Of a DNA stretch of 64,000 nt, positions 10,992 through 64,000 are shown piece by piece. The DNA lies in NCBI GenBank assembly GCA_000004695.1, contig CM000152.2, positions 4,576,001 to 4,640,000 of the forward strand. Direction: 5' to 3'. The DNA comes from Dictyostelium discoideum. Lineage: Eukaryota. Position 1 is the stretch's first letter, and every line of letters starts with the position of its first letter. The position numbers and the translations under genes are program-made. The notes under the pieces were generated by a model that was not told the origin of the DNA, did no database searches, and saw only the letters and a program-made list of their open reading frames with translations.

Positions 10992-13900
10992 TTAACGATT
11001 GAGCCATCTAACTTTTTTGAAACCCCAGAAACTTAAACCAACAAAAATGAAAATGTAACCAAAGATAGCAGCAATATCGATATATCTCATGAATTTATGG
11101 AAACCATAAGTTAACATGAAATCATCACCATTTGTAATTGGACAATAATATTTAATCGCTATTTGAACACCATTTTCAATGATTGGAATTGGTACAGCAC
11201 CTTTATTATTTGTACAAACAAATGTTAAACCTGTGAATTCATTGGTACAAGATGCTTCCAAAGGATACCTGAGCCAGTCTAAATAATGACACCAATAATA
11301 TGCAGATGGATAATTTGGTCTTGCAATGACGAAACCACCAAATAATGTTGCCAATGATAAACCAATACCACATATTGTTGATGCCATAACTTCATTTGGT
11401 AAGCAAACCGCCAGACATAATGCAAACGCATCATACATAATATAGGTGATAATGAAAATGAATAGACAATACCAAAATTTAGATGAATGTCGACCGGAAT
11501 CCAGACCAGCAATCCAAAATGTTGGAATAATATAAAGAATACCAGTTGATAGAATAAATGGATACGATGTTAATACATATGATATCATATATGCCGTTGA
11601 ATGATAGAAACCTGCGGTAACTTCACGATAGAATACACCTCTTTCTAATACTGTTGTTGGAATATTACCAATTGCGACCATACCGGCAAAAAGGAACGAA
11701 AAGAAGAGTAATGAAACACGAGATCTTGCATCCTTTTGTTCATAGTCCATACGAACAAATAGTGTACCTAATAGGACTGCCAACAATATTGAACGAAGAC
11801 AATTTGAAACGAATATTGCTGGACGCCTCAACCGAGATAACCAACTTCTCATACAAAGTGCGCGGAATTGTGTCATCCATGATGAAGCAAACCTTGAATC
11901 ATACGTTTTAACTACAAAGTCATCAGGTATTAATTGTCCTTCCATAATTTCATATTCTTTTTTACAAATATTAGATTCAAAATATGCCTTCTTTGCATCA
12001 AGATGTTCTTGTTCACCATTTGGACCTTCAACCATTTTACCTTCATCAGCTAATGTCATTACGAAATCAGCAGGATTAATATGTGGTTTAATATGCATAC
12101 CTAATTTATCACAATAATCTAAAATCACACTTGACTGATTACCCAATGGCCCAAAATAAATTGTTTCACCACCTTTTTTTAGTAATAATAATTGGTCAAA
12201 GAATTCGAAAATTGCAGCAGATGGTTGATGTACTGTACAAATTACAGTTCTATTCATTACTTTGGCAATTTTATTAACTACATCAATTACTTTAAATGCG
12301 TCACCAGAGTCTAAACCACTTGTTGGTTCATCAAGGAAAAGAATTTCTGGATTTGAAGCTAATTCAACACCAATATTTACTCTTTTTCTTTGCGATACTG
12401 ATAAACCATTTCCAAGTACACCAATCTTTAAATCTTTAATACTTGATAGACTTAAAACTTCAACGATCTTATCAACAAAGATCTCTCTTTCTTCTTTAGT
12501 AACTTCAGGTGGTAGTCTACATCTTGCACTGAATGCAATCGCTTCTCTAACTGTTTGTGTTGGTGGTAAAACATCCATTTGTTCAACATATGCTCTTATT
12601 CTATTTGTAAATTCAGAAGGTGGTTTACCATTAATTAAAATTTCACCAGTGATATGGCCACCAGTTTTTCTTTGAGCTAAAACATCTAATAATGTTGATT
12701 TACCTGCACCTGATGGTCCCATTAATGCTAACATCTATAATAAAAAAATAAAATTAATAATTAGTAATAAATAAATTAAACAAAAGAATATTTTTAAAAA
12801 ACATACTTGACCAGGTTTAACATAACCATCAATATCAGTTAATAGTTGTAATCTTTGACTTTTCTTTTTCTTTGGATTGTCTGGATCATCAGCTTTTACA
12901 TCAACAGCATAACAAAGTTTTTTAAATTGTAAATAACTACCAGTTTCTGAACTTATATCTTTTTGAGAGGTACTTATTGGTTTTTGTTTTGAATGATTAC
13001 CATTTTTTGAAGGAGTATTAACCATTGGTGATAAATTTGTTAATGGGGAATTAACCATTGGTGATAGAGTCGAAGGTGTTTTAACTTTTCTTCTTTTTAT
13101 ATTATTACCGGATCCTGATAAATTATTATTATTATTGTAATTGGGAGATGTTAATGGTGATTTCATATCAATTACAGTATCATCGTCATAGTTTGAAATA
13201 TCAGCATTATCATCATTATCATCACTAACTCTTTCTAATGCTTCAGTAGTAACTTTACAATTTGGCTCTTCATCTTCTTTACAAACAATAACTTTTTTCT
13301 TTTTCTTTAATTTCTTTACTGCTAATTTGGATTTTTTATCTTCAAAATTTAAATATTTCAAAGCAAAGAAACAAACTGAATAAAAGAATACAATATAAGC
13401 ACCTAAAATTGCATAAACAATCCATTTGAAATAATCTGGGTTATTAATACCAAATGCATCCATAATTTGTTCACCAGATGTATATTGACAAACTTGATTA
13501 CCACCGAAACCTTCTGGATATGGTAATAGATTTTGAGGAGTTCTTGGTGGTATTAATTCAGAATCTTTACAACCATACGCTTGATATGTAAATTCATTAA
13601 TTGATAAACCTTGGAAAATCCATGTATAGGGTGATATATAATATAACCAAATCCACCAACCTCCAATATCATTCTTTGGTGCCGTGAAACCTGAAAATAA
13701 TAACCAAATTGAAAGTATTACTGATGCTGTTACATTTGCAATTTCAATTGTTGGTGAAATTGCTGCACACATTTTAGCAAATGATAATGATAAATTATCA
13801 GTTCTAAAAAAAAAAAAAAAAAATTAGGATTTATAAAAATAAATACTTGAATAAATTAATTAAAATAAAAATACATACATAAATAATAAAATCATAAAAT

Positions 13901-14532
13901 AAACAAACCTAATGAAAACTGGCCTAAGATTTGCTAGCCAATAAACAATTGGACCAAAGAATGCGACTTCAATTAAACCAGCGGGAATATCACAAATGAT
14001 ACTTGAAATAAAGTATGCACCAGTTTTATAATAATGTAATGCTTTTTGAGAATAAAATACTTTTCTTTCACCAAAGAATGAATTAACAGCGGCAAATGAA
14101 GAGAAAATAATTGTTGTCATAATAAAGAATAAAAGACCAAATCTTTCCATACCACCACTTTGATTATGACCAATTCTCCAATAGAGTGTACCTAATAATA
14201 ATCCAAAGAAAATTCCTTTAAAAACACGAGTTGCAAAATTATAATAATTTCTACTAATCATAATGAAACCCCTCTTTAAACAAATTTTAGTTTGATAACC
14301 AATACCATGTGGATACATTCCTAATTCTTTAGCTGTACTATCTACTAAGACTTTTGGTTTATTATCATCAACAATACCATCTTTATTTGCATCCATCTTT
14401 TCCATTAATTCAAGATAAATATCTGATTCTCTATATGCTTTAACAAAATCATCACTAGTTTTACATTTTGGTGGATGAATAAATGAATATCTTTCTGGTG
14501 CATCTACAACTTCCTCTATTTTACATTTTTTT

Positions 14533-14566
<34 letters not shown>

Positions 14567-15572
14567 ATTAAAATTTAAAATTAAATGTTATTAAAACTTA
14601 CGAAAGAATTCAGCAGGATTATTATGAGATGGACATGCAAAACCTAATTTTTTAAAATAGCCTAATGCTCTATTCATTGGACCAAAATAACAAATTTTAC
14701 CTTTACTCATAATCATTAAATTATCAAATAATGAAGTTAATTGAACACTTGGTTGTAGTAAAGTGATGAGTGCAGGTGAATAACCATATGTTACAAACTT
14801 TTTAACATCACTTAAAATTTCGAAACTTGTTGAAGAATCTAAACCTGATGTTGGTTCATCCATTAATAATAGATTACTACCTTTAATAACACCAACACCA
14901 ATTGTAACTCTTTTCTTTTGACCACCTGATATACCTCTAATGAAATTATCACCAACCAATGTATTTTCTGCATGTTTTAAACCTAATAGTTTCATACAAT
15001 TATCAACGCTTACTTGTTTTTCTTCACGGGTGAGTTCTTTTTTACCTAAACAATCCAATGCGAATCTAAATGTTTCTTTTACAGTTAATGTCGGTACATG
15101 AATATCATCTTGAGTTACATATGAAATATCACGATGGTGATTTTTATGATTGATTGGATGACCATTAAATAATAATTCACCTTCAAAATGTTTATCTTTT
15201 AATTGACCTGCTAACATTTGGAAAATGGTTGATTTACCACAACCAGGAGTACCTAAAATTAATGTCATTTGTTTTGGTCTTAAAAAAAATGAAACATCAT
15301 CTAATAATTTAATTTTAACTTTTTTATTTTCTCTATGTTTTACTGTATATGTTGCATTTCTACAATAAACATATAAACCTGTTTTATCCTCTGGTCTAGT
15401 TTGTTTAATCTTTTTTGTTAATTCATCATTTTCATGATTTGGCATTAATTCATCTAATGGAATTGGGAAATATTCATCATCTTCTTCTCCTTCATGCTCT
15501 TTTGCAATTTGATAAATACTATCTTCAAAATCATTTTCTTCATCTTTATGTTTTATATTATTATTATTATTG

Positions 15573-15652
<80 letters not shown>

Positions 15653-15754
15653 GTTATTATTATTATTATTTAGGGTTGGTTCTTCTTGATTATTTATTGG
15701 TATTGATAGATTCGGAGAATATGAAGATTTATCTCTTGGATCTTGTTTTACCAT
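10992..15754 (-). CDS. ABC transporter, G family, full-size PDR-type (NBD-TMD-NBD-TMD, ~1499 aa), copy A; 4 exons: complement(join(10992..12734,12807..13803,13909..14515,14602..15754))
   Basis: N-terminal NBD has Walker A 'LILGTPGCGKST' and signature 'ISGGQKKRVTIG'. Second NBD has 'LMGPSGAGKSTLLDVLA', 'LSVSQRKRVNIG' and Walker B 'ILFLDEPTSGLD'. Hydrophobic TMD segments follow each NBD. Introns GTAAGT…ATAG (86 nt), GTTTGT…TTAG (105 nt) and GTATGT…ATAG (72 nt) restore one continuous frame across listed ORFs 14591..15754, 13860..14405, 12735..13772 and 10992..12734. Confidence 0.8.
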
Positions 15755-16821: not shown

Positions 16822-18565
16822 TTAACGATTGAACCATCTAATTTTTTTGAAACCCCAGAAACTTAAACCAACAAAAATGAAAATGTAACCAAAGATAGCA
16901 GCAATATCAATATATCTCATGAATTTATGGAAACCATATGTTAACATGAAATCATCACCATTTGTAATTGGACAATAATATTTAATCGCTATTTGAACAC
17001 CATTTTCAATGATTGGAATTGGTACAGCACCTTTATTATTTGTACAAACAAATGTTAAACCTGTGAATTCATTGGTACAAGATGCTTCCAAAGGATACCT
17101 GAGCCAGTCTAAATAATGACACCAATAATATGCAGATGGATAATTTGGTCTTGCAATGACGAAACCACCAAATAATGTTGAGAGTGATAAACCAATACCA
17201 CATATTGTTGATGCCATAACTTCATTTGGTAAGCAAACCGCCAGACATAAACCAAACGCATCATACATAACATAGGTGATAATGAAAATGAATAGACAAT
17301 ACCAAAATTTAGATGAATGTCGACCAGAATCCAGACCAGCAATCCAAAATGTTGGAATAATATAAAGAATACCAGTGGATAAAGTAAATGGATATGATGT
17401 TAATACATATGATGTCATATATGCCGTTGAATGATAGAAACCTGCAGTGACCTCACGATAGAATACACCTCTTTCTAATACTGTTGTTGGAATATTACCA
17501 ATTGCGACCATACCGGCAAAAAGGAACGAAAAGAAGAGTAATGAAACACGAGATCTTGCATCCTTTTGTTCATAATCCATACGAACAAATAGTGTACCTA
17601 ATAGGACTGCCAACAAAATTGATCGTATACAATTTGAAACGAATATTGCTGGACGCCTCAACCGAGATAACCAACTTCTCATACAAAGCGCACGGAATTG
17701 TGTCATCCATGATGAAGCAAACCTTGAATCATACGTTTTAATTACAAAGTCATCAGGTATTAATTGTCCTTCCATAATTTCATATTCTTTTTTACAAATA
17801 TCAGATTCAAAATACGCCTTCTTTGCATCTAGGGGTACTTGTTCACCATTTGGACCTTCAACCATTTTACCTTGGTCAGCTAATGTCATTACGAAATCAG
17901 CAGGATTAATATGTGGTTTAATATGCATACCTAATTTATCACAATAATCTAAAATCACACTTGACTGATTACCCAATGGCCCAAAATAAATAGTTTCACC
18001 ACCTTGTTTTAGTAATAATAATTGGTCAAAGAATTCGAAAATTGCAGCAGATGGTTGATGTACTGTACAAATTACAGTTCTATTCATTACTTTGGCAATT
18101 TTATTAACTACATCAATTACTTTAAATGCGTCACCAGAGTCTAAACCACTTGTTGGTTCATCAAGGAAAAGAATTTCTGGATTTGAAGCTAATTCAACAC
18201 CAATATTTACTCTTTTTCTTTGCGATACTGATAAACCATCACCAAGTACACCAATCTTTAAATCTTTAATACTTGATAAACTTAAAACTTCAACGATCTT
18301 ATCAACATAGCTCTCTCTTTCTTCTTTAGTAACTTCAGGTGGTAGTCTACATCTTGCACTGAATGCAATCGCTTCTCTAACTGTTTGTGTTGGTGGTAAA
18401 ACATCCATTTGTTCAACATATGCTCTTATTCTATTTGTAAATTCAGAAGGTGGTTTACCATTAATTAAAATTTCACCAGTGATATGGCCACCAGTTTTTC
18501 TTTGAGCTAAAACATCTAATAATGTTGATTTACCTGCACCTGATGGTCCCATTAATGCTAACATC

Positions 18566-18597
<32 letters not shown>

Positions 18598-21500
18598 TTT
18601 ATTAATAAATTAATTAACAAAAGAGTATTATTAATTTTTAAAAAACATACTTGACCAGGTTTAACATAACCATCAATATCAGTTAATAGTTGTAATCTTT
18701 GACTTTTCTTTTTCTTTGGATTGTCTGGATCATCAACTTTTACATCAACAGCATAACAAAGTTTTTTAAATTGTAAATAACTACCAGTTTCTGAACCAAT
18801 ATCTTTTCCATTTTTAGATTTTTCATTTGAATTATTATTATTATTATTATTGCTTGGAGATGTTGGCATTGGTGAATTTATAGTAATTGGTGAATTAACT
18901 GAAGGTGATAAATTTGAAGGTGTTTTAACTTTTCTTTTCTTTATATTATTACCAGATCCTGATAAATTATTATTATTATTATTAATATTATAATAAGGTG
19001 AACCAGTTGTTAAACTTGATGGTGATTTTACATCGATTACAGTATCTTCTTTTTGTTTCTTATGAGATTTCTTTTTCTTTATTTCAGTTTCATAATCAGC
19101 ATCATCATCATTATCATCATCAATTCTTTCTAATGCTTCAGATGAAATAGCAGCTGATTCTTCATCTTGTTTCGTTGTTTTTACTTTTTTCTTTTTCTTT
19201 AATTTCTTTACTGCTAGTTTTGATTTTTTATCTTCGAAATTAAAGTATTTCAAAGCAAAAAAACAAACCACATAAAAGAATACAATATAAGCACTTAAAA
19301 TTCCAAAAACAACCCATTTGAAATAATTTGGATTAGTAATACCAAATGCATCCATAATTTGTTCACCAGATGTAAATTGACAAACTTGATTACCCCCAAA
19401 ACCTTCTGGATATGGTAATAGATTTTGAGGAGTTCTTGGTGGTATTAATTCAGAAGTTTTGCAACCATACTCTTGATATGTAAATTCATTAATTGATAAA
19501 CCTTGGAAAATCCATGTATAGGGTGATATATAATATAACCAAATCCACCAGCCTCCAATATCATTCTTTGGTGCCGTGAAGCCTGAAAATAATAACCAAA
19601 TTGAAAGTATTACTGATGCAATAACATTAGCAATTTCAATTGTTGGTGAAATTGCTGCACACATTTTTGCGAATGATAATGATAAATTATCAGTCCTAAC
19701 AATGTAGATATATGGCAGGGGTAGTGGACATGGAGGAGGAGACAGAGAGAGACAGGGCGAAATAAGGGAGGGAGACAGAGAGACAGGGCAGAGACACGGG
19801 AGGAGACAGGGAGAGATAAGGGAGGGGAGATAGGAAGAGACAGGGAGAGACAAGGAAGGAGAATAAGGGTGAAGAAAATAAAAAAATAAAATTAGTATAT
19901 ATGAAATTAAATACTTAAATAAATTAATAAATTAAAATAAAAATACATACATAATTAATAAAAGCATAAAATAAACAAACCTAATGAAAACTGGCCTAAG
20001 ATTTGCTAACCAATAAACTATAGGACCAAAGAAAGCAACTTCTAAAATACCAGCAGGAATATCACAAATGATACTTGAAATAAAATATGCACCAGTTTTA
20101 TAATAATATAATGCTTTTTGAGAGTAAAATACTTTTCTTTCACCAAAGAATGAATTAACAGCGGCAAATGAAGAAAAGATAATAGTTACCATAATAAAGA
20201 ATAAAAGACCAAATCTTTCCATACCACCACTTTGATTATGACCAATTCTCCAATAGAGTGTACCTAATAATAATCCAAAGAAAATTCCTTTAGCAACACG
20301 AGTTAAAAAATTATAATAATTTCTTCTAATCATTGTAAAACCTCTTTTCATACATATTTTAGTTTGATAACCAATACCATGTGGATACATTCCTAATTCT
20401 TTAGCTGTACTATCCACTAAGACTTTTGGTTTATTATCATCAACAATACCATCTTTATTTGCATCCATCTTTTCCATTAAATCTTTATAAAATTCTGATT
20501 CTCTATAGGCTCTAACAAAATCTTTACTGGTTTTACATTTTGGTGGATGAATAAATGAATATCTTTCTGGTGCATCTACAACTTCCTCTATTATTTTACA
20601 TTTTAAATAATTAATAAAAATTAATAAATAAAATTTTAAATTTTAAAAATTAAAATTAAATATTTTTTAAAAAAACTTACGAAAGAATTCAGCAGGATTA
20701 TTATGAGATGGACATGCAAAACCTAATTTTTTAAAATAACCTAATGCTTTGTTCATTGGACCAAAATAACAAATTCTACCTTTATTTAAAATCATTAAAT
20801 TATCAAATAATGAAGTTAATTGAACACTTGGTTGTAGTAAAGTGATGAGTGCAGGTGAATAACCATATGTTACAAACTTTTTAACATCACTTAAAATTTC
20901 GAAACTTGTTGAAGAATCTAAACCTGATGTTGGTTCATCCATTAATAATAGATTACTACCTTTAATAACACCAACACCAATTGTAACTCTTTTCTTTTGA
21001 CCACCTGATATACCTCTAACGAAATTATCACCAACTACTGTATTTTCAGATTCTTTTAAACCTAATAAATTCATACAATTATCAACAGTTTCTTTCTTTT
21101 CTTCATTTGTTAATTCTTTTCTACCTAAACAATCTAATGCGAATCTAAATGTTTCTTTTACAGTTAATGTCGGTACATGAATATCATCTTGAGTTACATA
21201 TGAAATATCACGATGGTGATTTTTATGATTGATTGGATGACCATTAAATAATAATTCACCTTTAAAATGTTTATCTTTTAATTGACCTGCTAACATTTGA
21301 AAAATGGTTGATTTACCACAACCAGGAGTACCCAAAATTAATGTCATTTCTTTTGGTTTTAAATAAAATGAAATATCATCAATTAATTTAATTTTAACTT
21401 TTTTATTTTCTCTATGTTTTACTGTATATGTTGCATTTCTACAATAAACATATAAACCTGTTTTATCCTCTGGTCTAGTTTGTTTAATCTTTTTTGTTAA

Positions 21501-21668
21501 TTCATCATTTTCATGATTTGGCATTAATTCATCTAATGGAATTGGGAAATATTCATCATCACCATCATCTTCACCCTCATGCTCTTTTGCAATTTGATAT
21601 ACACTCTTTTCATCATCACTATCATAATTACTTTCTTCATCCTTATGTTTTCTACTACTACTAATTAA

Positions 21669-21755
<87 letters not shown>

Positions 21756-21860
21756 TAATAGTTCTTGATCATTATCTAAATTTTCATTATTATTATTATT
21801 TATAGGTATTGATAAATTGGGAGAATCTGAATTTTTATCTTTTGGATCCTGTTTTGCCAT
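16822..21860 (-). CDS. ABC transporter, G family, full-size PDR-type (~1524 aa), copy B (tandem paralog of copy A); 4 exons: complement(join(16822..18564,18651..19695,19981..20587,20681..21860))
   Basis: Same motifs and the same three intron positions and phases as copy A. Exons are about 90-95% identical at nucleotide level. The 3' flank ('gaatatatttaatttgagatgattaacgattga(g/a)ccatctaa') is also shared. Intron 2 is expanded to 285 nt by a GA/CT-rich insert. Confidence 0.8.
19715..19875. repeat. GA-rich (sense-strand CT-rich) imperfect minisatellite, roughly (GGGAGAGACAG)n, inside intron 2 of ABCG copy B. Absent from copy A
   Basis: Stretch 'ggaggaggagacagagagagacagggcgaaataagggagggagacagagagacagggcagagacacgggaggagacagggagagataagggaggggagataggaagagacagggagagacaaggaaggag' is about 55-60% GC in a genome that is about 20% GC. 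The copy A intron is plain A/T-rich at this position. Confidence 0.8.
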
Positions 21861-22331: not shown

Positions 22332-23040
22332 TATTGTATATTGTCATACTAATAATATTTTTAGGTGAGGAAACAAAAAAACAAAAAAACAAAAAAAAAA
22401 AATAAAAAAAAAAAATAAAAATAAAAATAAAAATAAAAATGTGTTTGGTAATGTGCTAGATTAGATGATTTATTTTAAATTTATATTTTTTCAACTAAAG
22501 TTGAGAAAAAAAAAAAAAAAAAATTCTTTTCTAAAAATAGAATTTATTACCTAAATTGATCACTAAAAAAAAAAAAGAAAAAATTTTTATGGATACACAC
22601 ACAATTGTTTTTTTATTATTGAATACATGATTTTAAATTATCATCACCAAAAAATAGGTGGTAATTTTTTTTTTTTATTTTATTTTATTTTCATGTATTA
22701 TTTTTTTTTATTTTTTATTTTTTTTTATTTTTGATGATTATAAATAAATACACACTTCATAAACCTTTTCTATATTTTTTATTACATATCAGAAATTAAT
22801 AAATATATATATATGTGTGTGTATCTCTTTTTGTTTGTGTGTGTTTGTGTGTAATTTAAAAATAAAAAATTTTATTTATTTTTTATTTTAAAAATTATTT
22901 ATTATTTTTTTTTTTATTTGTTTAATATATTTTAAAACACAAAGATAAATAAAGATTTATTTTTATTTTTTTTTTCTTTCTTTTTTTAGTGAAAAAATAA
23001 TATTTATGTGTTAATAAAAAAAAATAAAAAAAAAAGGAAA

Positions 23041-23045
23041 ATGGA

Positions 23046-23076
<31 letters not shown>

Positions 23077-23100
23077 AATAGTAATAATAATAATATTGAA

Positions 23101-23181
<81 letters not shown>

Positions 23182-25437
23182 TTTGAAAATAAAAAATCAT
23201 TAAATGATAGTGGTGGAGCACAAAGTAAATCATATCAATTATATTCAAGTTTAGATTCAGCATTAAATTCTGGATCACAAGATGATAGTGAAAATAATGA
23301 AATTGATCAAGATTTATTAGATGGTATTGATGATCTATCATCATTTGATGAGAATGATCCAGCAATTTTAAAAGATATCGGTGACTATGATTTAAAATCT
23401 TTGGAATCCTATGAACTTTCATTGGAACAAAAATTTACATCAGAATTGGATGAATCATTCCGATCAGAATTAGAAGAAGCTGAAAAGAAATATGAACAAT
23501 CATTAAGAAAAACTTTAACATTAAAACAACATCATAATTTTAATAATTATCATAATCTAAAAAATCAATTCCCCTCATCACCACCAGTATCTTCCCCATC
23601 ATCAATCCCAATTGGTACACCATCCTCTTCCTCGTTCTCATCATCACCTCTATCATCATCAACATCATCATTTGTTTCTGATGATGACGATGATGACGAT
23701 GACGATGAGAATGAAGAAGATGAAGAGCATGATCACAGAGAAGGCGATGAAAAAGAAGATGATAAAAGTAATATTATTACAGGTAGTGGAAAAATAATAA
23801 ATAATAAATTTAAAAATAAAATTAAAAATAATCAAGATAATAATGATAATGAAAATGAAAATAGTGATCAAATTAATATTGAAGATGAATTAAAAGAGAA
23901 TAGAGAAACATTAAAGAATGCAAAGAAAACAATTGCATCATTGATTGAACAAATATCAGATTACCAAACATTAATTGAAGAAGAGAAAGAGAGAGAAAAA
24001 GAAGAACTAATTCAACAATTCAATCAAGAGATTCAAGAAATGTCTGAAATTATTGATTATTTAAAATTAGAAAAACAATCAATAACTCAAACCAATATTA
24101 AAAATTTAGAAACTTTAATGAAAGAAATTGAAATCATTGAAGAAACAAATACAAATTTAAAAGAATCTTTAGAAAAAGAAAAACTTGAAAATTTAAGATC
24201 AATGGAAACTATATTCAATTTAAAACAAGAAATTTTAAAAAATCAATTTAATAATGATCAACAACAAATAATATCTGATGGTGCAAATCAAATTAATGCT
24301 AATACCCCACCACCATCATTCCTTTCACAAGCATTATTAGAATTTAAAATTGAAAATGGTACAATTTCAAATATTAAATTAATTCCTAATAATAATAATA
24401 GTAGTATCAGCAACAATACAATTAATAATAATTCATCGTCAATATTTGAAATTGAAAATGAGAATAATCAATTAATGAAGAAATTAATTGAAGAAAAGGA
24501 ATTTAGAAATGGAATTGAAAAGGAATTAAAAGAAGAGAAGCAAAGGAATGAAACTTCAAAGAATAGTATTGAAGAATTGGTTAAAAATATAAAAAGATTA
24601 ATTAAAGATCATACTGGTGTATTAAAGGAATTAGAAGAAGAGAAATCAAAATTACAACAAAAAACTGATGAATTTAATAAATTAAAAATTCAATTATCAA
24701 ATCAATCAAATAGTAATAATAATAGTAATTCAAATTCACCAACAACTCAATCTTCTAGACATAAACTTTTACATAGAACTAGTACATCTTTTGATATTGG
24801 TAGACAAAAACATAATAGATCTGGTACATTTGGTGGTGACCTTATTCAAAAATCAACAATTGTTGATAATGAAAATGATAAAAAATCAACTACAACCACC
24901 ACTACTACTTCTACTACATCGACATCATTTGTTGCATCAAGTAGTCCATCAACAACATCAGTTCAATCACCATTACCATCAAGTCCAAGTTCAAATGGTT
25001 TATTAACATCACCACCAAGAAAAGTATCACTTTCATTACCTCCTAAACCAATTTTAAAAGTGTCAACACCTGTTAAAGATAATAATAATTCAACAACCCC
25101 TACCCCAACAACAAACAAACAAAATAATGTACAAATTAAAACACCACCAGTATCACCAATTCCATCATTATCTTCATCAGCTGAAGATGAAAATTCTAAA
25201 CAAAAAAATGAATCTTCATCACCATTAACATCTCCAACATCATTATCATCTTCATTATCAGTTAGTACTGGTAGTAATAATAATGAAGAAAATAATAAAA
25301 AACCCCAAGGATCATTAAGTTCATCTACAGGTGGTGATGCATGTAGATTATTAAGAAGAGGTTCCGCAATTTTAGATTTAAGAAATGATACAGTTGGTAG
25401 ATCAAGTAGTAATAAAATACCATTATCTGTATCTTCA

Positions 25438-25503
<66 letters not shown>

Positions 25504-27561
25504 TTTAATAATAATAATAATTATAATAATAATAATAATAATAACAATAGTAATAGTAGTAGTAATAATAATAGTAATAATATTATTAATAATAGTAGTA
25601 ATAATAGTAGTGGTAATAATAATAATGGTACACTCTCTTCATTATCTTCAGTATCAACTACATCTTCTTCTTCTTCAATTTCAAAATCAAATTCTATATC
25701 AAATAATAATAAAAATAATAATACTAATAATAATAATAATTATAATAATAATAATATAAATAATAATAGTTGTTATAATACAATGACAATTAATAATATT
25801 AATGATTATATGATTAAATGGTTAAATGAAGATCACATTTCACCATCACCAATTCAATGTATGATTGAAGTTAATAAAAACGTTTGGATTGGTTGTAGTG
25901 ATGGTTCAATTAGAATAATTGATAAAATCACCCATTTACCAGTTTCATGTAAAATGTCTCAAAATCGTCAACATAATGGTGGAATTTATCAAATGATTTT
26001 AGTTGGTAAAACAGTTTGGAGTTGCAGTCGTGATTCAAAAATTAGAGTTTGGTCTTCAAAATCTGGTAAATTATTAAAAGAATTAGATGGTCATTCAAGT
26101 CATGTAACTGCACTATTATTAGTATCAAATAATAATAATAATAATAATAACAATAATAATAACAGTATTAATAATAATGCAACAGTACAAGGTAGTACAA
26201 TAATACAACCAACAGTTTGGAGTGTTTCAGCTGATATGACAATTAGGATTTGGAGTTTATCATCATATAAATGTATTAAGAAAATTGAAACTAAAAATTA
26301 TTTAGTATCAATGGTTTGTTTTGGTAATGAAGTTTGGATTGGTACTGAATCGACTATATTGAGATGGAACTGTTCAACTTTTGAACAAATTGGTATATTA
26401 AGTGGTCATAAGAAAATGATACATTGTTTAATTGTGGTCAAACAATATGTTTGGTCATGTAGTAGTGATAATTTAATTTGTGTTTGGGATCCTGTAAATG
26501 GGAAATGTATAAAACAATTTAAAGATCATTCATCTCGAGTTTTCTATTTATTAAATGTTGGTTCACATGTTTGGTCTTGTGATTGGGGTAAAAATATTAT
26601 AATTCATGATGTAAATGATTTGGAATTGGTTAAAGAAATTGACCCAATTCATAGAGATGCTCTAAGTTGTCTAATCACTATTAAACTACCAGATGGTACT
26701 CGTCAAATTTGGAGTGGTTCTTGGGATAATTCAATCATAATTTGGAAACCATCCTCATTATCAAAACAAGAACAACAACAATTAATTGAAAAACAATATG
26801 CTGAACTTCAAGCACAGCAATTACAACAACAATTACAACAACAATTATTATTAAATCAATCACAAGATAATTATTTAGCATCAGATTATCCATTAATTGA
26901 TGAAATGGAGAATAATAATAATATAAATTCAAATAATAGACATAGAAAATCAAATAGTAGTCATTCATTACAAACCACACCAAAAACATCAACACCTAAT
27001 CTTCATAATACATTAGCAGCAGTTGGTGGTAGTAATAATAATAATAATAACAATGGTGAAAAACAACATAAAAGAAGTACTGTTCGTTTATCATCTCTAT
27101 TTAAAAAAGAATCATCTTCACCAAATGTTATTCATAATTTAGCATCTAGTAGTGGTATGGTTGGTAGTAAAAGTGATCCTGGTATTATAAATATAAATAA
27201 TAATCATAATAATCATAATCATAATAATGAATCTGACGAATATTTAATTTATTTAAATAATCATAAACATCAACTCGAAAAAATTATTTCAAATCAATTA
27301 AATCCAGTTTGTTCAATATGTCAATTGTAAGTTATTTATTTATTATTTATTATTTATTATTATTATTATTATTATTATTTTGTTTTTTTTATAAAATATA
27401 TATATTAATATATTTATGATAATAGAAAAATAAAAGCAAAAAAGACAATATATCAATGTCGTTTATGTGCAAATTGTATTCATTTGGAATGTGGTGATAA
27501 AAGTAGTCAAGAAACTGGTGGTAGGGGTGGTCTTATTTGTTCTGCGACTTTAAACAGATAA
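23041..27561 (+). CDS. Large WD40-repeat / coiled-coil protein (~1473 aa) with a C-terminal Cys-rich zinc-finger (C1/PHD-like) exon; join(23041..27326,27426..27561)
   Basis: Long ORF has poly-N/S-rich and coiled-coil (E/K-rich) regions, then WD40 blades ('WSCSRDSKIRVWS', 'VWSVSADMTIRIWS', 'WSCSSDNLICVWD', 'IWSGSWDNSIIIWK'). The ORF stop TAA at 27328-30 lies inside a consensus donor 'caattGTAAGT'. A 99-nt AT-rich intron ends 'aatag', and the exon continues in phase as 'LKIKAKKTIYQCRLCANCIHLECGDKSSQETGGRGGLICSATLNR*'. Probable initiator is the ATG at 23041 (aaaATGg). The listed ORF start at 23008 is a GTG. Confidence 0.6.

Positions 27562-61513: not shown

Positions 61514-64000
<2,487 letters not shown>

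Follow-up and report, generated by a model that had tools for sequence, protein, structure and literature searches.

Introns of Dictyostelium discoideum have a median length of 103 nt and an AT content of 89%, and ACTAAT is their most frequent branch hexamer (PMC2483917). G-quadruplex (G4)-prone motifs were reported by Saad et al. 2019 (NAR 47:4363) in 62–157 of 18,192 D. discoideum introns, in all cases on the non-coding strand (PMC6511855), on which such intronic motifs are enriched 2–3.4-fold; all 14 of the D. discoideum G4Hunter candidates that were assayed in vitro, the lowest of which scored 1.41, folded into G4 (PMC6511855). In human introns with distant branch points, regulatory elements are often found in the long AG-free regions between branch point and acceptor, which are frequently also a mark of alternative splicing of the exon (Gooding et al. 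2006, PMC1431707). The telomeric repeats of Dictyostelium are pure A(G)n with G runs of up to 8 (PMC6759168).

The tract described here is located in the second intron of copy B, one member of a tandem pair of ABC-transporter genes, within a 64-kb stretch of D. discoideum DNA that is referred to below as the window. Judged by its sequence, the tract fits the published rare class of intronic non-coding-strand G4-prone motifs, with a propensity that is borderline. It is probably best understood as a tolerated captured insertion of a rare, already described kind, and not as a new functional element.

Host genes and intronic position of the block

The features of the two genes and of the block are listed in Table 1. 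Copy A and copy B are about 93% identical over most exons (87–98% by exon), with a dS of 0.13 and a dN/dS of 0.41, and the reading frame of copy B is intact across its 1534 codons. Homology searches with peptides from exons 2 and 3 gave distant matches only, at 25–28% identity, and none of them was to a dictyostelid protein. A protein-guided metagenome scan yielded no confirmed loci, and exact sequence look-ups of both full-length ABCG models and of three ORFs of the window returned no match.

Table 1. Coordinates of the ABCG genes, their second introns and the elements of the copy B block (positions in the window).
Feature	Position	Strand	Details
ABCG copy B (PDR-type, full-size)	16822–21860	−	exons 21860–20681, 20587–19951, 19695–18651, 18564–16822; 1534 aa
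ABCG copy A	10992–15754	−	exons 15754–14602, 14515–13879, 13803–12807, 12734–10992; 1509 aa
Intron 2, copy B	19696–19950 (255 nt, 39% GC)	−	GTATGT...TTAG; predicted gene model
Intron 2, copy A	13804–13878 (75 nt, 9% GC)	−	CTAAT + T18 + AG; uninterrupted reference state
Copy-B-only block	19700–19874 (175 bp)	−	defined by intron alignment, composition and AG counts
Degenerate tandem array	19735–19862	.	GAGACAGGGA-like subunits of ~10 bp nested in units of ~54 bp; TRF
Non-repeated block end	19700–19734 (35 nt)	−	sense ccatgtccactacccctgccatatatctacattg; adjoins the 'ttag' acceptor; outside every TRF array
Ancestral T-rich tract	19875–19891	−	ttttatttttttatttt; homologous to copy A T18; block now parts acceptor from tract
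ACTAAT branch-point motif	19891–19896	−	sole CTRAY-type motif in copy B intron 2; putative branch A 19892, 196 nt from intron 3' end
G4Hunter windows ≥1.5	19803–19834	+ (template strand)	scores 1.52–1.58

Apart from copy B intron 2, the introns of both genes (five, copy A intron 2 included) are 72–93 nt long and contain 4–9% GC, in agreement with the published D. discoideum norms. Copy A intron 2 shows the complete canonical architecture CTAAT-T18-AG. Alignment of the second introns showed that copy B intron 2 differs from that of copy A by a single contiguous block of 175 nt, which lies between the conserved T-run and the 'ttag'; over the 75 positions that could be aligned, the two introns share 89% identity. 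The tract is absent from copy A intron 2, and its restriction to one of the two ABCG paralogs, as claimed in an earlier sequence-only reading, was thus borne out by the alignment.

The product of spliced exons 2 and 3 gave one gap-free ABC2_membrane match that covers positions 1–211 of the 211 of the profile (E 8.7e-55). Read-through from exon 2, as in intron retention, reaches a stop at 19932–19934, and the single other intronic AG, located upstream in copy B intron 2, leads to an immediate stop. The tract itself is open in the frame of exon 3 (ORF 18558–19853). A coding exon or retained coding insert was ruled out by the read-through stop, by the stop that follows the upstream AG and by the Pfam domain, which is gap-free without the tract. 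To judge from these reading frames, the tract must be spliced from the mRNA. As the codons of copy B are intact and its dN/dS against copy A is that given above, intron 2 is presumably removed; that its splicing is correct and efficient is likewise presumed, from ORF integrity only.

Composition, repeat structure and origin of the block

The 175-bp block, first measured as 19703–19878, contains about 52% GC and is 85% purine on the plus strand, and the corresponding values for 19715–19875 are 55.3% and 87%. Its plus strand is GA-rich; its sense (minus) strand is C/T-rich and AG-free. The GC content of the whole window is 24.6%, and the GC maximum of the window was found in the 150-bp windows starting at 19701–19731 (0.56, versus a 99.9th percentile of 0.48). 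The codon composition of the block differs from the rest of the window in every frame. The tract is therefore GC-rich, as the sequence-only reading had stated, but at a measured 52–55% and not at 55–60%.

In the tandem array TRF found a period of 10 with 11 copies of GAGACAGGGA (68% matches), nested periods of 21 (5.7 copies) and 31 (2.5 copies), and a period of 54 with 2.1 copies (85% matches, score 163). A blastn comparison of the tract with itself gave internal matches of 83.6% over 73 bp, and three units of the tract begin with TTAT. When a 22-nt degenerate unit was searched for with up to 3 mismatches, 3 matches were obtained in the tract, none elsewhere in the window and none in shuffled sequences (0/100). 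The tract thus contains head-to-tail copies above chance of a unit within the ~10–100 bp of minisatellites, and its description as a GC-rich GA/CT minisatellite was upheld by the TRF arrays and the composition. The repeat unit GGGAGAGACAG and the acceptor context, ccatatatctacattgttag followed by GACTGATAAT, had also been read correctly from the sequence. The repeats had been put at about 160 bp; they are present, but the block is longer, and its last 35 sense nucleotides are non-repetitive, with an irregular spacing of pyrimidines.

No similarity of the tract to the rest of the 64-kb window was detected by blastn, the non-LTR retrotransposon present there included. The occurrence of the same tract at many loci, which had been proposed as the test of an ordinary transposable-element fragment, was looked for in the 64-kb window only, and the tract is unique there. 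Exact searches with the 22-nt unit gave no matches in metagenome, viral and prokaryote genome collections, and neither did a 20-nt probe from the unique end in viral and prokaryote genome collections. A literature string search with a 13-mer of the tract returned human IgG Fc matches only, which were regarded as coincidence. No terminal inverted repeats joining the ends of the block were found, and MITE-like ends were ruled out by this lack of an inverted repeat. No convincing target-site duplication was seen either, the flanking A/T run being ancestral and present in copy A too.

From these data, non-native GC-rich DNA, consisting of a degenerate minisatellite and 35 nt of unique sequence, would have been captured. 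The insertion most likely took place after the ABCG tandem duplication, into the T-run of copy B intron 2, two bases upstream of the acceptor AG. The non-repeated 35-nt end together with the non-native composition favours capture over growth in place or slippage from the T-run. For the same two reasons the block is best explained as a fragment that was captured or inserted, and the earlier suggestion of a remnant of an inserted element stands to this extent.

The captured DNA could itself have come, as a fragment, from a family of dispersed repeats or transposable elements, or have arisen by retro-copying of an RNA; this concerns only the origin of the block and is compatible with capture. In the retro-copy version, the sense-strand T-run would have served as the primer when a polyadenylated, GA-rich RNA was reverse-transcribed, leaving the CT-rich complement where it is found. 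The position of the block at the 3' end of the sense T-run is the geometry expected of target-primed reverse transcription, and the block forms one contiguous piece of non-native composition with a unique 35-nt end; the non-LTR retrotransposon 11 kb distant would also be in line with this origin. Set against it are the uniqueness of the tract in the window (also with respect to that retrotransposon), the lack of terminal inverted repeats and of a convincing target-site duplication, and the absence of exact probe matches in the metagenome, viral and prokaryote genome collections, so that an origin of this kind is considered rather doubtful. The retrotransposon appears to be intact (ORF2 with RVT_1).

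Insertion is also the polarity that we infer for the difference between the paralogs, as an ancestral tract lost from copy A by precise deletion after the duplication is improbable. The polarity was judged from the two paralogs. The deletion would have had to excise exactly the GC-rich block and to leave a canonical CTAAT-T18-AG; moreover, it is the copy A intron that is typical of the genome in length and composition, and not that of copy B (PMC2483917).

Capture of an interstitial telomeric A(G)1-8 repeat at a chromosome break was considered as another source of the block and is highly improbable. The plus strand is indeed 85% A+G, and A(G)n strings of at least 3 units cover 34% of the block versus 12% in shuffles, a coverage of 34% being reached by 0.15% of the shuffles. 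In contrast to a telomeric array, the block is broken by a C or T at intervals of about 10 nt, following a regular GAGACAG pattern, and 27 pyrimidines are found in 175 nt; pure A(G)n strings extend to 11 nt at most, G runs do not exceed 4 and AA dinucleotides are common. Telomere-repeat capture was rejected, as the block is not an uninterrupted A(G)1-8 array.

Branch site, acceptor and splicing of intron 2

The distance from the only good branch motif (TACTAAT) to the acceptor is 196 nt in copy B versus 20 nt in copy A. In copy B this motif is followed by a 17-nt T-rich run, and the 20 nt before the AG are 65% pyrimidine, as compared with the T18 that directly precedes the AG in copy A. From ACTAAT to the acceptor of copy B, a distance of 193 nt, no AG occurs. 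The block is AG-free in the sense orientation, and in the opposite orientation it would contain 39 AG, 11 of them YAG. Mononucleotide shuffles of the block were AG-free in 32% of cases, and any selection would therefore act on orientation or composition and not on individual AGs; the absence of AG as a sign of selection on single dinucleotides was discarded, being not significant once composition was allowed for.

RNA of the tract was predicted to be fully unpaired for both strands (z −0.81 and +0.76 versus shuffles), and an Rfam search gave no match overlapping the tract, even at E values of up to 10. A structured ncRNA gene was ruled out by these two results. A 20-nt hairpin of 80% complementarity spans the acceptor (19661–19680/19686–19705); its z of −0.96 is no better than that of shuffles, and its core is also found in copy A.

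In the pre-mRNA, the tract would form an unstructured C/U stretch of about 175 nt without AG, which in this orientation would be compatible with splicing. Because the sense-orientation tract has no AG, the first AG past the ancestral UACUAAU would be the authentic acceptor and the frame would be kept; the tract may have persisted because its orientation is compatible with splicing. The main mechanistic effect of the insertion would be a cost or neutral, and not a gain, as the branch site was displaced and T18 gave way to the 65%-pyrimidine stretch, and neutrality is taken here as the default assumption. The branch point used in copy B intron 2 is placed from motifs, and two routes may be envisaged. 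Splicing could proceed from a branch point that is distant and followed by a long AG-exclusion zone, in agreement with an AG-free stretch of more than 100 nt that is preceded by a branch consensus and a pyrimidine tract, or it could make use of one of the weak internal CUUAU sites at −67, −121 or −168.

The tract had been suggested to be a strong polypyrimidine-tract splice enhancer. This proposal was not sustained by the comparison with copy A, which already has T18, since the more distant branch motif and the replacement of T18 next to the AG by a weaker tract are not enhancer-like. In a broader form, the C/U tract would recruit U2AF65-, PTB- or PCBP-type proteins, enhance or repress the exon 3 acceptor and make the splicing of copy B differ from that of copy A. 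Such a regulator would agree with the pyrimidine content of 80–95% in each 20-nt window from −23 to −182, with 9 UCUCU and 3 CUCUCU motifs, with the fully single-stranded prediction and with the regulatory elements of human AG-free regions (PMC1431707). It is nonetheless unlikely, given that the T18 of copy A was already ideal and that the insertion weakened the 20 nt adjacent to the AG and moved the branch motif 176 nt farther away; furthermore, polypyrimidine signals in Dictyostelium are T-rich and not C-rich (PMC2483917), and skipping or mis-splicing of exon 3 would destroy a transmembrane domain. As the next AG downstream of the acceptor is out of frame (41 nt in) and loss of exon 3 would be destructive, no in-frame alternative product is apparent.

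Non-B DNA propensity and comparison with known systems

The class criterion of Saad et al., a G4Hunter score of at least 1.5 in a 25-nt window, was applied to the tract, and the windows given in Table 1 were obtained. The tract shares the location of that class as well, being intronic in a gene of the minus strand with its G-rich strand on the plus strand, and it is not contained in Tables S1a and S1b of Saad et al. 2019 (PMC6511855). With G4Hunter scores of 1.56–1.58 it fails the thresholds of 1.75 and 2.0. The plus strand contains 11 runs of G3–4; quadparser found no motifs with loops of up to 7 nt and one with loops of up to 12 nt (19786–19827). The view that the tract is foreign to Dictyostelium intron composition was correct in that the tract is unusual for an AT-rich genome, but it was overstated in view of the introns with G4-prone motifs already reported (PMC6511855).

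An H-DNA motif, also put forward by the sequence-only reading together with an in silico check, is defined as a homopurine–homopyrimidine mirror repeat whose arms, about 10 nt or longer, are separated by a short spacer. The check was run, and in the tract no mirror repeats were found with arms of at least 10 nt, up to 1 mismatch and a spacer of up to 10; purine runs without interruption do not exceed 13 nt. The H-DNA suggestion was therefore abandoned.

As a functional non-B DNA element, the tract would modulate transcription or replication of copy B by G-quadruplexes of the template strand (or by H-DNA), and the expression of the paralogs would differ. The scores at 19803–19834 and the G3–4 runs speak for such an element, as do the in vitro G4 formation of all candidates assayed and the non-coding-strand enrichment (PMC6511855). 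Against it stand the failure at the higher thresholds, a quadparser motif that needs loops of up to 12 nt, the negative H-DNA result and the absence of the tract from the paralog, and what has been observed for the class is a statistical enrichment and not a demonstrated function. The probability of a functional element of this type is considered low. On the favoured account, that of a tolerated captured insertion, the G-rich template strand and its borderline G4 propensity would be a by-product.

By itself this GC-rich island, rare in an intron landscape of 89% AT, is no more than a modest curiosity. The locus also represents a natural experiment, in which two paralogs of ~93% identity differ by one 175-nt block that increases the branch-to-acceptor distance tenfold; a comparison of intron 2 splicing between copy A and copy B would reveal how far the Dictyostelium spliceosome scans for an acceptor. 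A wider meaning can be put forward tentatively. Copy B intron 2 may be a natural and recent distant-branch-point intron, with a paralog as control, in a short-intron protist, and GC-rich insertions with purine/pyrimidine asymmetry may survive in introns only when they are AG-free pyrimidine on the pre-mRNA. The published strand bias of G4-prone motifs would then reflect a filter for splicing compatibility and not G4 biology, because in the opposite orientation the stretch between branch site and acceptor would be crowded with cryptic acceptor AGs (39 in the present case). If true, this would be a simple, testable non-G4 account of the so far unexplained strand bias of Dictyostelium intronic G4-prone motifs.

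Four described systems can be compared with this locus. Like the G4-prone introns of Saad et al. (PMC6511855), the tract is intronic, with a G-rich template strand, a C-rich intron RNA and a G4Hunter score of at least 1.5 in a very AT-rich intron. Unlike those motifs, it reaches the lowest threshold only, has G3 runs with long loops, extends over 175 bp of which tandem repeats form a part, and is placed relative to a branch site and an acceptor, with a tract-free paralog at hand.

The telomeric and rDNA-terminal A(G)1-8 repeats (Emery and Weiner 1981; Rodriguez-Centeno et al. 2019, PMC6759168) are similar to the tract in having one A+G-rich strand and an irregular sequence, and differ from it in that the tract is regularly interrupted by pyrimidines, has short G runs and is gene-internal. 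With ordinary eukaryotic intronic minisatellites and GA–CT tandem repeats the tract shares degenerate units arranged head to tail, higher-order periods that vary, a location outside coding sequence and lineage specificity. It is set apart from them by the extreme contrast with its host (52% GC versus 4–9% GC in the sister introns) and by its position between branch site and acceptor, where spacing is normally tightly constrained.

As in the human distant-branch-point introns with AG exclusion zones (Gooding et al. 2006, PMC1431707), copy B intron 2 has a long AG-free pyrimidine-rich stretch, which here measures 193 nt from the branch motif to the acceptor and about 217 nt when counted from the preceding AG, and whose upstream end carries a consensus branch motif with a T-rich tract behind it. 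In contrast to the human introns (PMC1431707), that of copy B belongs to another kingdom with short-intron genes, its branch point is predicted from the motif, and its architecture would stem from a recent insertion and not from a conserved, regulated design.

The ABCG gene pair and its second intron

Both tandem ABCG paralogs (copies A and B) were modelled as four-exon genes from their ORFs, GT...AG boundaries and copy-to-copy alignment, and contained the Pfam domains ABC_tran, ABC2_membrane and PDR-associated. DNA identity between the copies was 87–98% by exon, with an overall dS of 0.13 and a dN/dS of 0.41, and the reading frames were intact in both; from these values both copies look functional. 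Exon 4 was 97.6% identical (dS 0.066), exon 3 (86.7%, dS 0.25) and the introns (77–89%) being less alike. This likeness of exon 4 points to gene conversion in the 3' half of the genes, or to stronger constraint there.

Features of the ABCG pair and of the remainder of the window
Feature	Position	Strand	Remarks
ABCG copy A, full-size PDR-type	10992-15754	-	four exons, 1509 aa
Exon 4, copy A	10992-12734	-	
Intron 2, copy A	13804-13878	-	75 nt, GTATGT...CCTAAT-T18-AG
Branch motif, copy A	13824-13830	-	TCCTAAT
ABCG copy B, full-size PDR-type	16822-21860	-	four exons, 1534 aa
Exon 4, copy B	16822-18564	-	
Intron 2, copy B	19696-19950	-	255 nt, GC 39%
Branch motif, copy B	19891-19897	-	TACTAAT
(TG)n-like microsatellite tgtgtgtgtatctctttttgtttgtgtgtgtttgtgtgt	22816-22860		intergenic, between ABCG copy B and the WD40-repeat gene
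Divergent WD40-repeat gene (ORF)	23008-27330		
tRNA-Leu(UAA)	30291-30373	+	
Non-LTR retrotransposon	30400-35780		apparently intact
Direct repeats	30468-30511, 30524-30567		44 nt each, 56 bp apart, identity 98%; in the presumed 5' UTR of the retrotransposon
ORF1	30693-31943		416 aa
C-rich segments	31561-31589, 31798-31826, 32016-32049	+	G4Hunter about -1.2 to -1.4
ORF2	31943-35647		1234 aa, RVT_1
Poly(A) of the retrotransposon	35750-35778		A29
Duplicate of the retrotransposon 3' end	36823-36880		GTTAATCAATATTAAAA...
tRNA-Leu(UAA), second	37433-37515	-	inverted
Purine-rich coding repeat	62300-64000, past window end	+	units of about 15, 66-96 and 177 bp

The first 76 nt of copy B intron 2 aligned to the copy A intron (75 alignable positions, 89% identical overall) and were followed by an unbroken block of 175 nt (19874 down to 19700), 'ttag' and exon 3. 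The remaining five introns of the pair were 72–93 nt long with a GC content of 4–9%. The block is by chance open in the frame of exon 3 (ORF 18558-19853). Its use as coding sequence was rejected, as read-through from exon 2 hits a stop codon at 19932-19934 and the sole other AG of the intron runs directly into a stop. The peptide from spliced exons 2 and 3 gave a single gap-free match to ABC2_membrane (1-211/211 on 211 residues, E 8.7e-55).

Composition and origin of the tract

The plus strand at about 19700-19875 showed a purine-rich and G-rich tract (...GGAGGAGGAGACAGAGAGAGACAGGGCGAAATAAGGGAGGGAGACAGAGAGACAGGG...), with 87% purine and 55% GC at 19715-19875 vs 24.6% GC across the whole window. 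The 150-bp windows of the tract had the highest GC of all 64 kb (maximum 0.56, 99.9th percentile 0.48), and GC skew and AT skew each reached about +0.68 locally. Tandem Repeats Finder detected nested periods at 19735-19862, of 10 bp x 11 (GAGACAGGGA), 21 x 5.7, 31 x 2.5 and 54 x 2.1, the last with 85% matches and a score of 163. A degenerate 22-nt unit had three matches, all inside the tract and none elsewhere in the window, and did not match in any of 100 shuffles. Composition, repeat detection and the 22-nt unit thus agree that the GC-rich repeat tract described in the sequence-only reading is real; its size and GC content are amended to 175 bp and 52–55%. Of the block, about 140 nt form a degenerate array, and its final 35 nt on the sense strand are a non-repeated end.

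Using G4Hunter (a G-quadruplex propensity score) with a 25-nt window and thresholds of 1.5, 1.75 and 2.0, a peak of 1.52–1.58 was found at 19803-19834 on the plus strand, the template strand of the gene, which is above the first threshold and below the other two. A classical G3+ motif was present only with loops allowed up to 12 nt. The proposed H-DNA motif was not borne out in silico: the tract, whose longest pure purine run was 13 nt, lacks homopurine mirror repeats with arms of 10 nt or longer. No Rfam family matched the tract, and no RNA structure was predicted for either strand. The likeness to the Dictyostelium telomeric repeat A(G)1-8 (PMC6759168) is superficial only. A telomeric origin was rejected, with only 34% of the block parsing as at least three consecutive A(G)n and a pyrimidine break about every 10 nt.

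Copy A intron 2 has the full canonical 3' layout (branch motif, T18 and AG) and fits the published norms of D. discoideum introns, which are 89% AT with a median of 103 nt and a poly-T peak 15–40 nt from the acceptor (Irimia and Roy 2008, PMC2483917). Copy B likewise has a branch motif, plus a 17-nt T-rich run broken two bases before the AG. As copy A is canonical and typical and the T-run of copy B is interrupted, an insertion into copy B would be more parsimonious than an exact deletion in copy A, a polarity inferred from the two copies. The array with its non-repeated end, and a codon composition differing from that of the host in every frame, argue for a captured pre-existing fragment, in line with the inserted remnant suggested earlier, and against slippage from the T-run. 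In the BLAST comparison that had been proposed, made here by blastn within the 64-kb window, the block showed no similarity to the retrotransposon or any other sequence, matching only itself and its internal repeats. No terminal inverted repeats and no clear target-site duplication were found at the block, and exact-match scans with block probes yielded nothing in the metagenome, viral and prokaryotic genome collections. The position of the block, at the 3' end of the sense-strand T-run, is the outcome that would be expected if this run had primed reverse transcription, a candidate route.

The retrotransposon resembles the TRE-type elements that target tRNA genes. Its start lies some 100 bp downstream from a tRNA-Leu(UAA) gene; the second, inverted copy of this gene lies 7 kb off (135-nt arms, 94% complementary). 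The three C-rich segments, about 220–235 bp apart around the ORF1/ORF2 junction, were, the tract aside, the only segments of the window to come to |1.5| with the 25-nt window. The coding repeat at the window end is unrelated to the tract; it encodes coiled-coil units of the LEKERLEKE...RIADELAAQ type, the source of the extreme GC and AT skew there. Poly-Asn tracts in the window are encoded by (AAT)n. Together with the base composition, the style of the introns and the tRNA-associated non-LTR retrotransposon, these tracts point to a dictyostelid, most likely Dictyostelium discoideum.

Consequences for splicing

The sole CTRAY-type motif in copy B intron 2 was (T)ACTAAT at 19896-19891, ACTAAT being the commonest D. 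discoideum branch hexamer (18.7% of introns; PMC2483917). The putative branch adenosine (19892) lies 196 nt from the intron end, compared with 20 nt for the CTAAT of copy A. Matches to yUnAy within the block were limited to three CUUAU (−67, −121 and −168), with none in the last 60 nt. In the 20 nt preceding the AG, copy B has 65% pyrimidine and copy A 90% T; farther upstream in copy B (−23 to −182) the pyrimidine content is 80–95%. With this pyrimidine content before the AG and the branch motif moved from 20 to 196 nt, the tract did not improve the site as the suggested polypyrimidine splice enhancer; we conclude that it would give no better splice site and, if anything, a weaker one. The TACTAAT of copy B is nearer the ideal U2-pairing consensus than the TCCTAAT of copy A, which could be compensatory strengthening following insertion, or chance.

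Yeast introns whose branch point lies far off shorten the distance by folding (PMC3239191). Since the tract is predicted to be wholly unpaired in the pre-mRNA, folding would be unable to do so in copy B. The 193 nt from branch motif to acceptor contain no AG, a layout known from human introns that combine distant branch points with AG-exclusion zones (Gooding et al. 2006, PMC1431707). Given the composition, this absence is unsurprising, 32% of shuffles of the block being AG-free; just 11% of the 175-nt AT-poor-GC windows within the window were AG-free. The inverted tract would bring 39 AGs, 11 of them YAG. On these counts, the conclusion is that the block would have been tolerated thanks to its orientation and composition.

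Relation to known intronic motifs

The tract is genuine: a captured GC-rich minisatellite, specific to one paralog, that sits between branch site and acceptor in an ABCG intron and is most probably tolerated by selection without serving any function. It is mildly interesting in that a consensus branch site was shifted tenfold farther from its acceptor, with the unchanged adjoining paralog as a control. It belongs to known kinds, as an intronic minisatellite and as an intronic G4-prone motif of the non-coding strand. In a G4Hunter survey of the AX4 genome, G4-prone motifs were enriched 2.0–3.35-fold in introns, yet of 18,192 introns just 157 contained one at a threshold of 1.5, and 62 at 2.0 (Saad et al. 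2019, PMC6511855). The tract is absent from the sequences in Tables S1a and S1b of that survey. The enrichment was on the non-coding strand alone, corresponding to C-rich regions in intron RNA, and no explanation of this bias was offered by its authors (PMC6511855). The tract shares this arrangement exactly, its G-rich strand being the non-coding one, and is therefore a member of a rare described class. The difference between no AG and 39 by orientation provides a simple candidate account, a splicing filter, of the published G4 strand bias.
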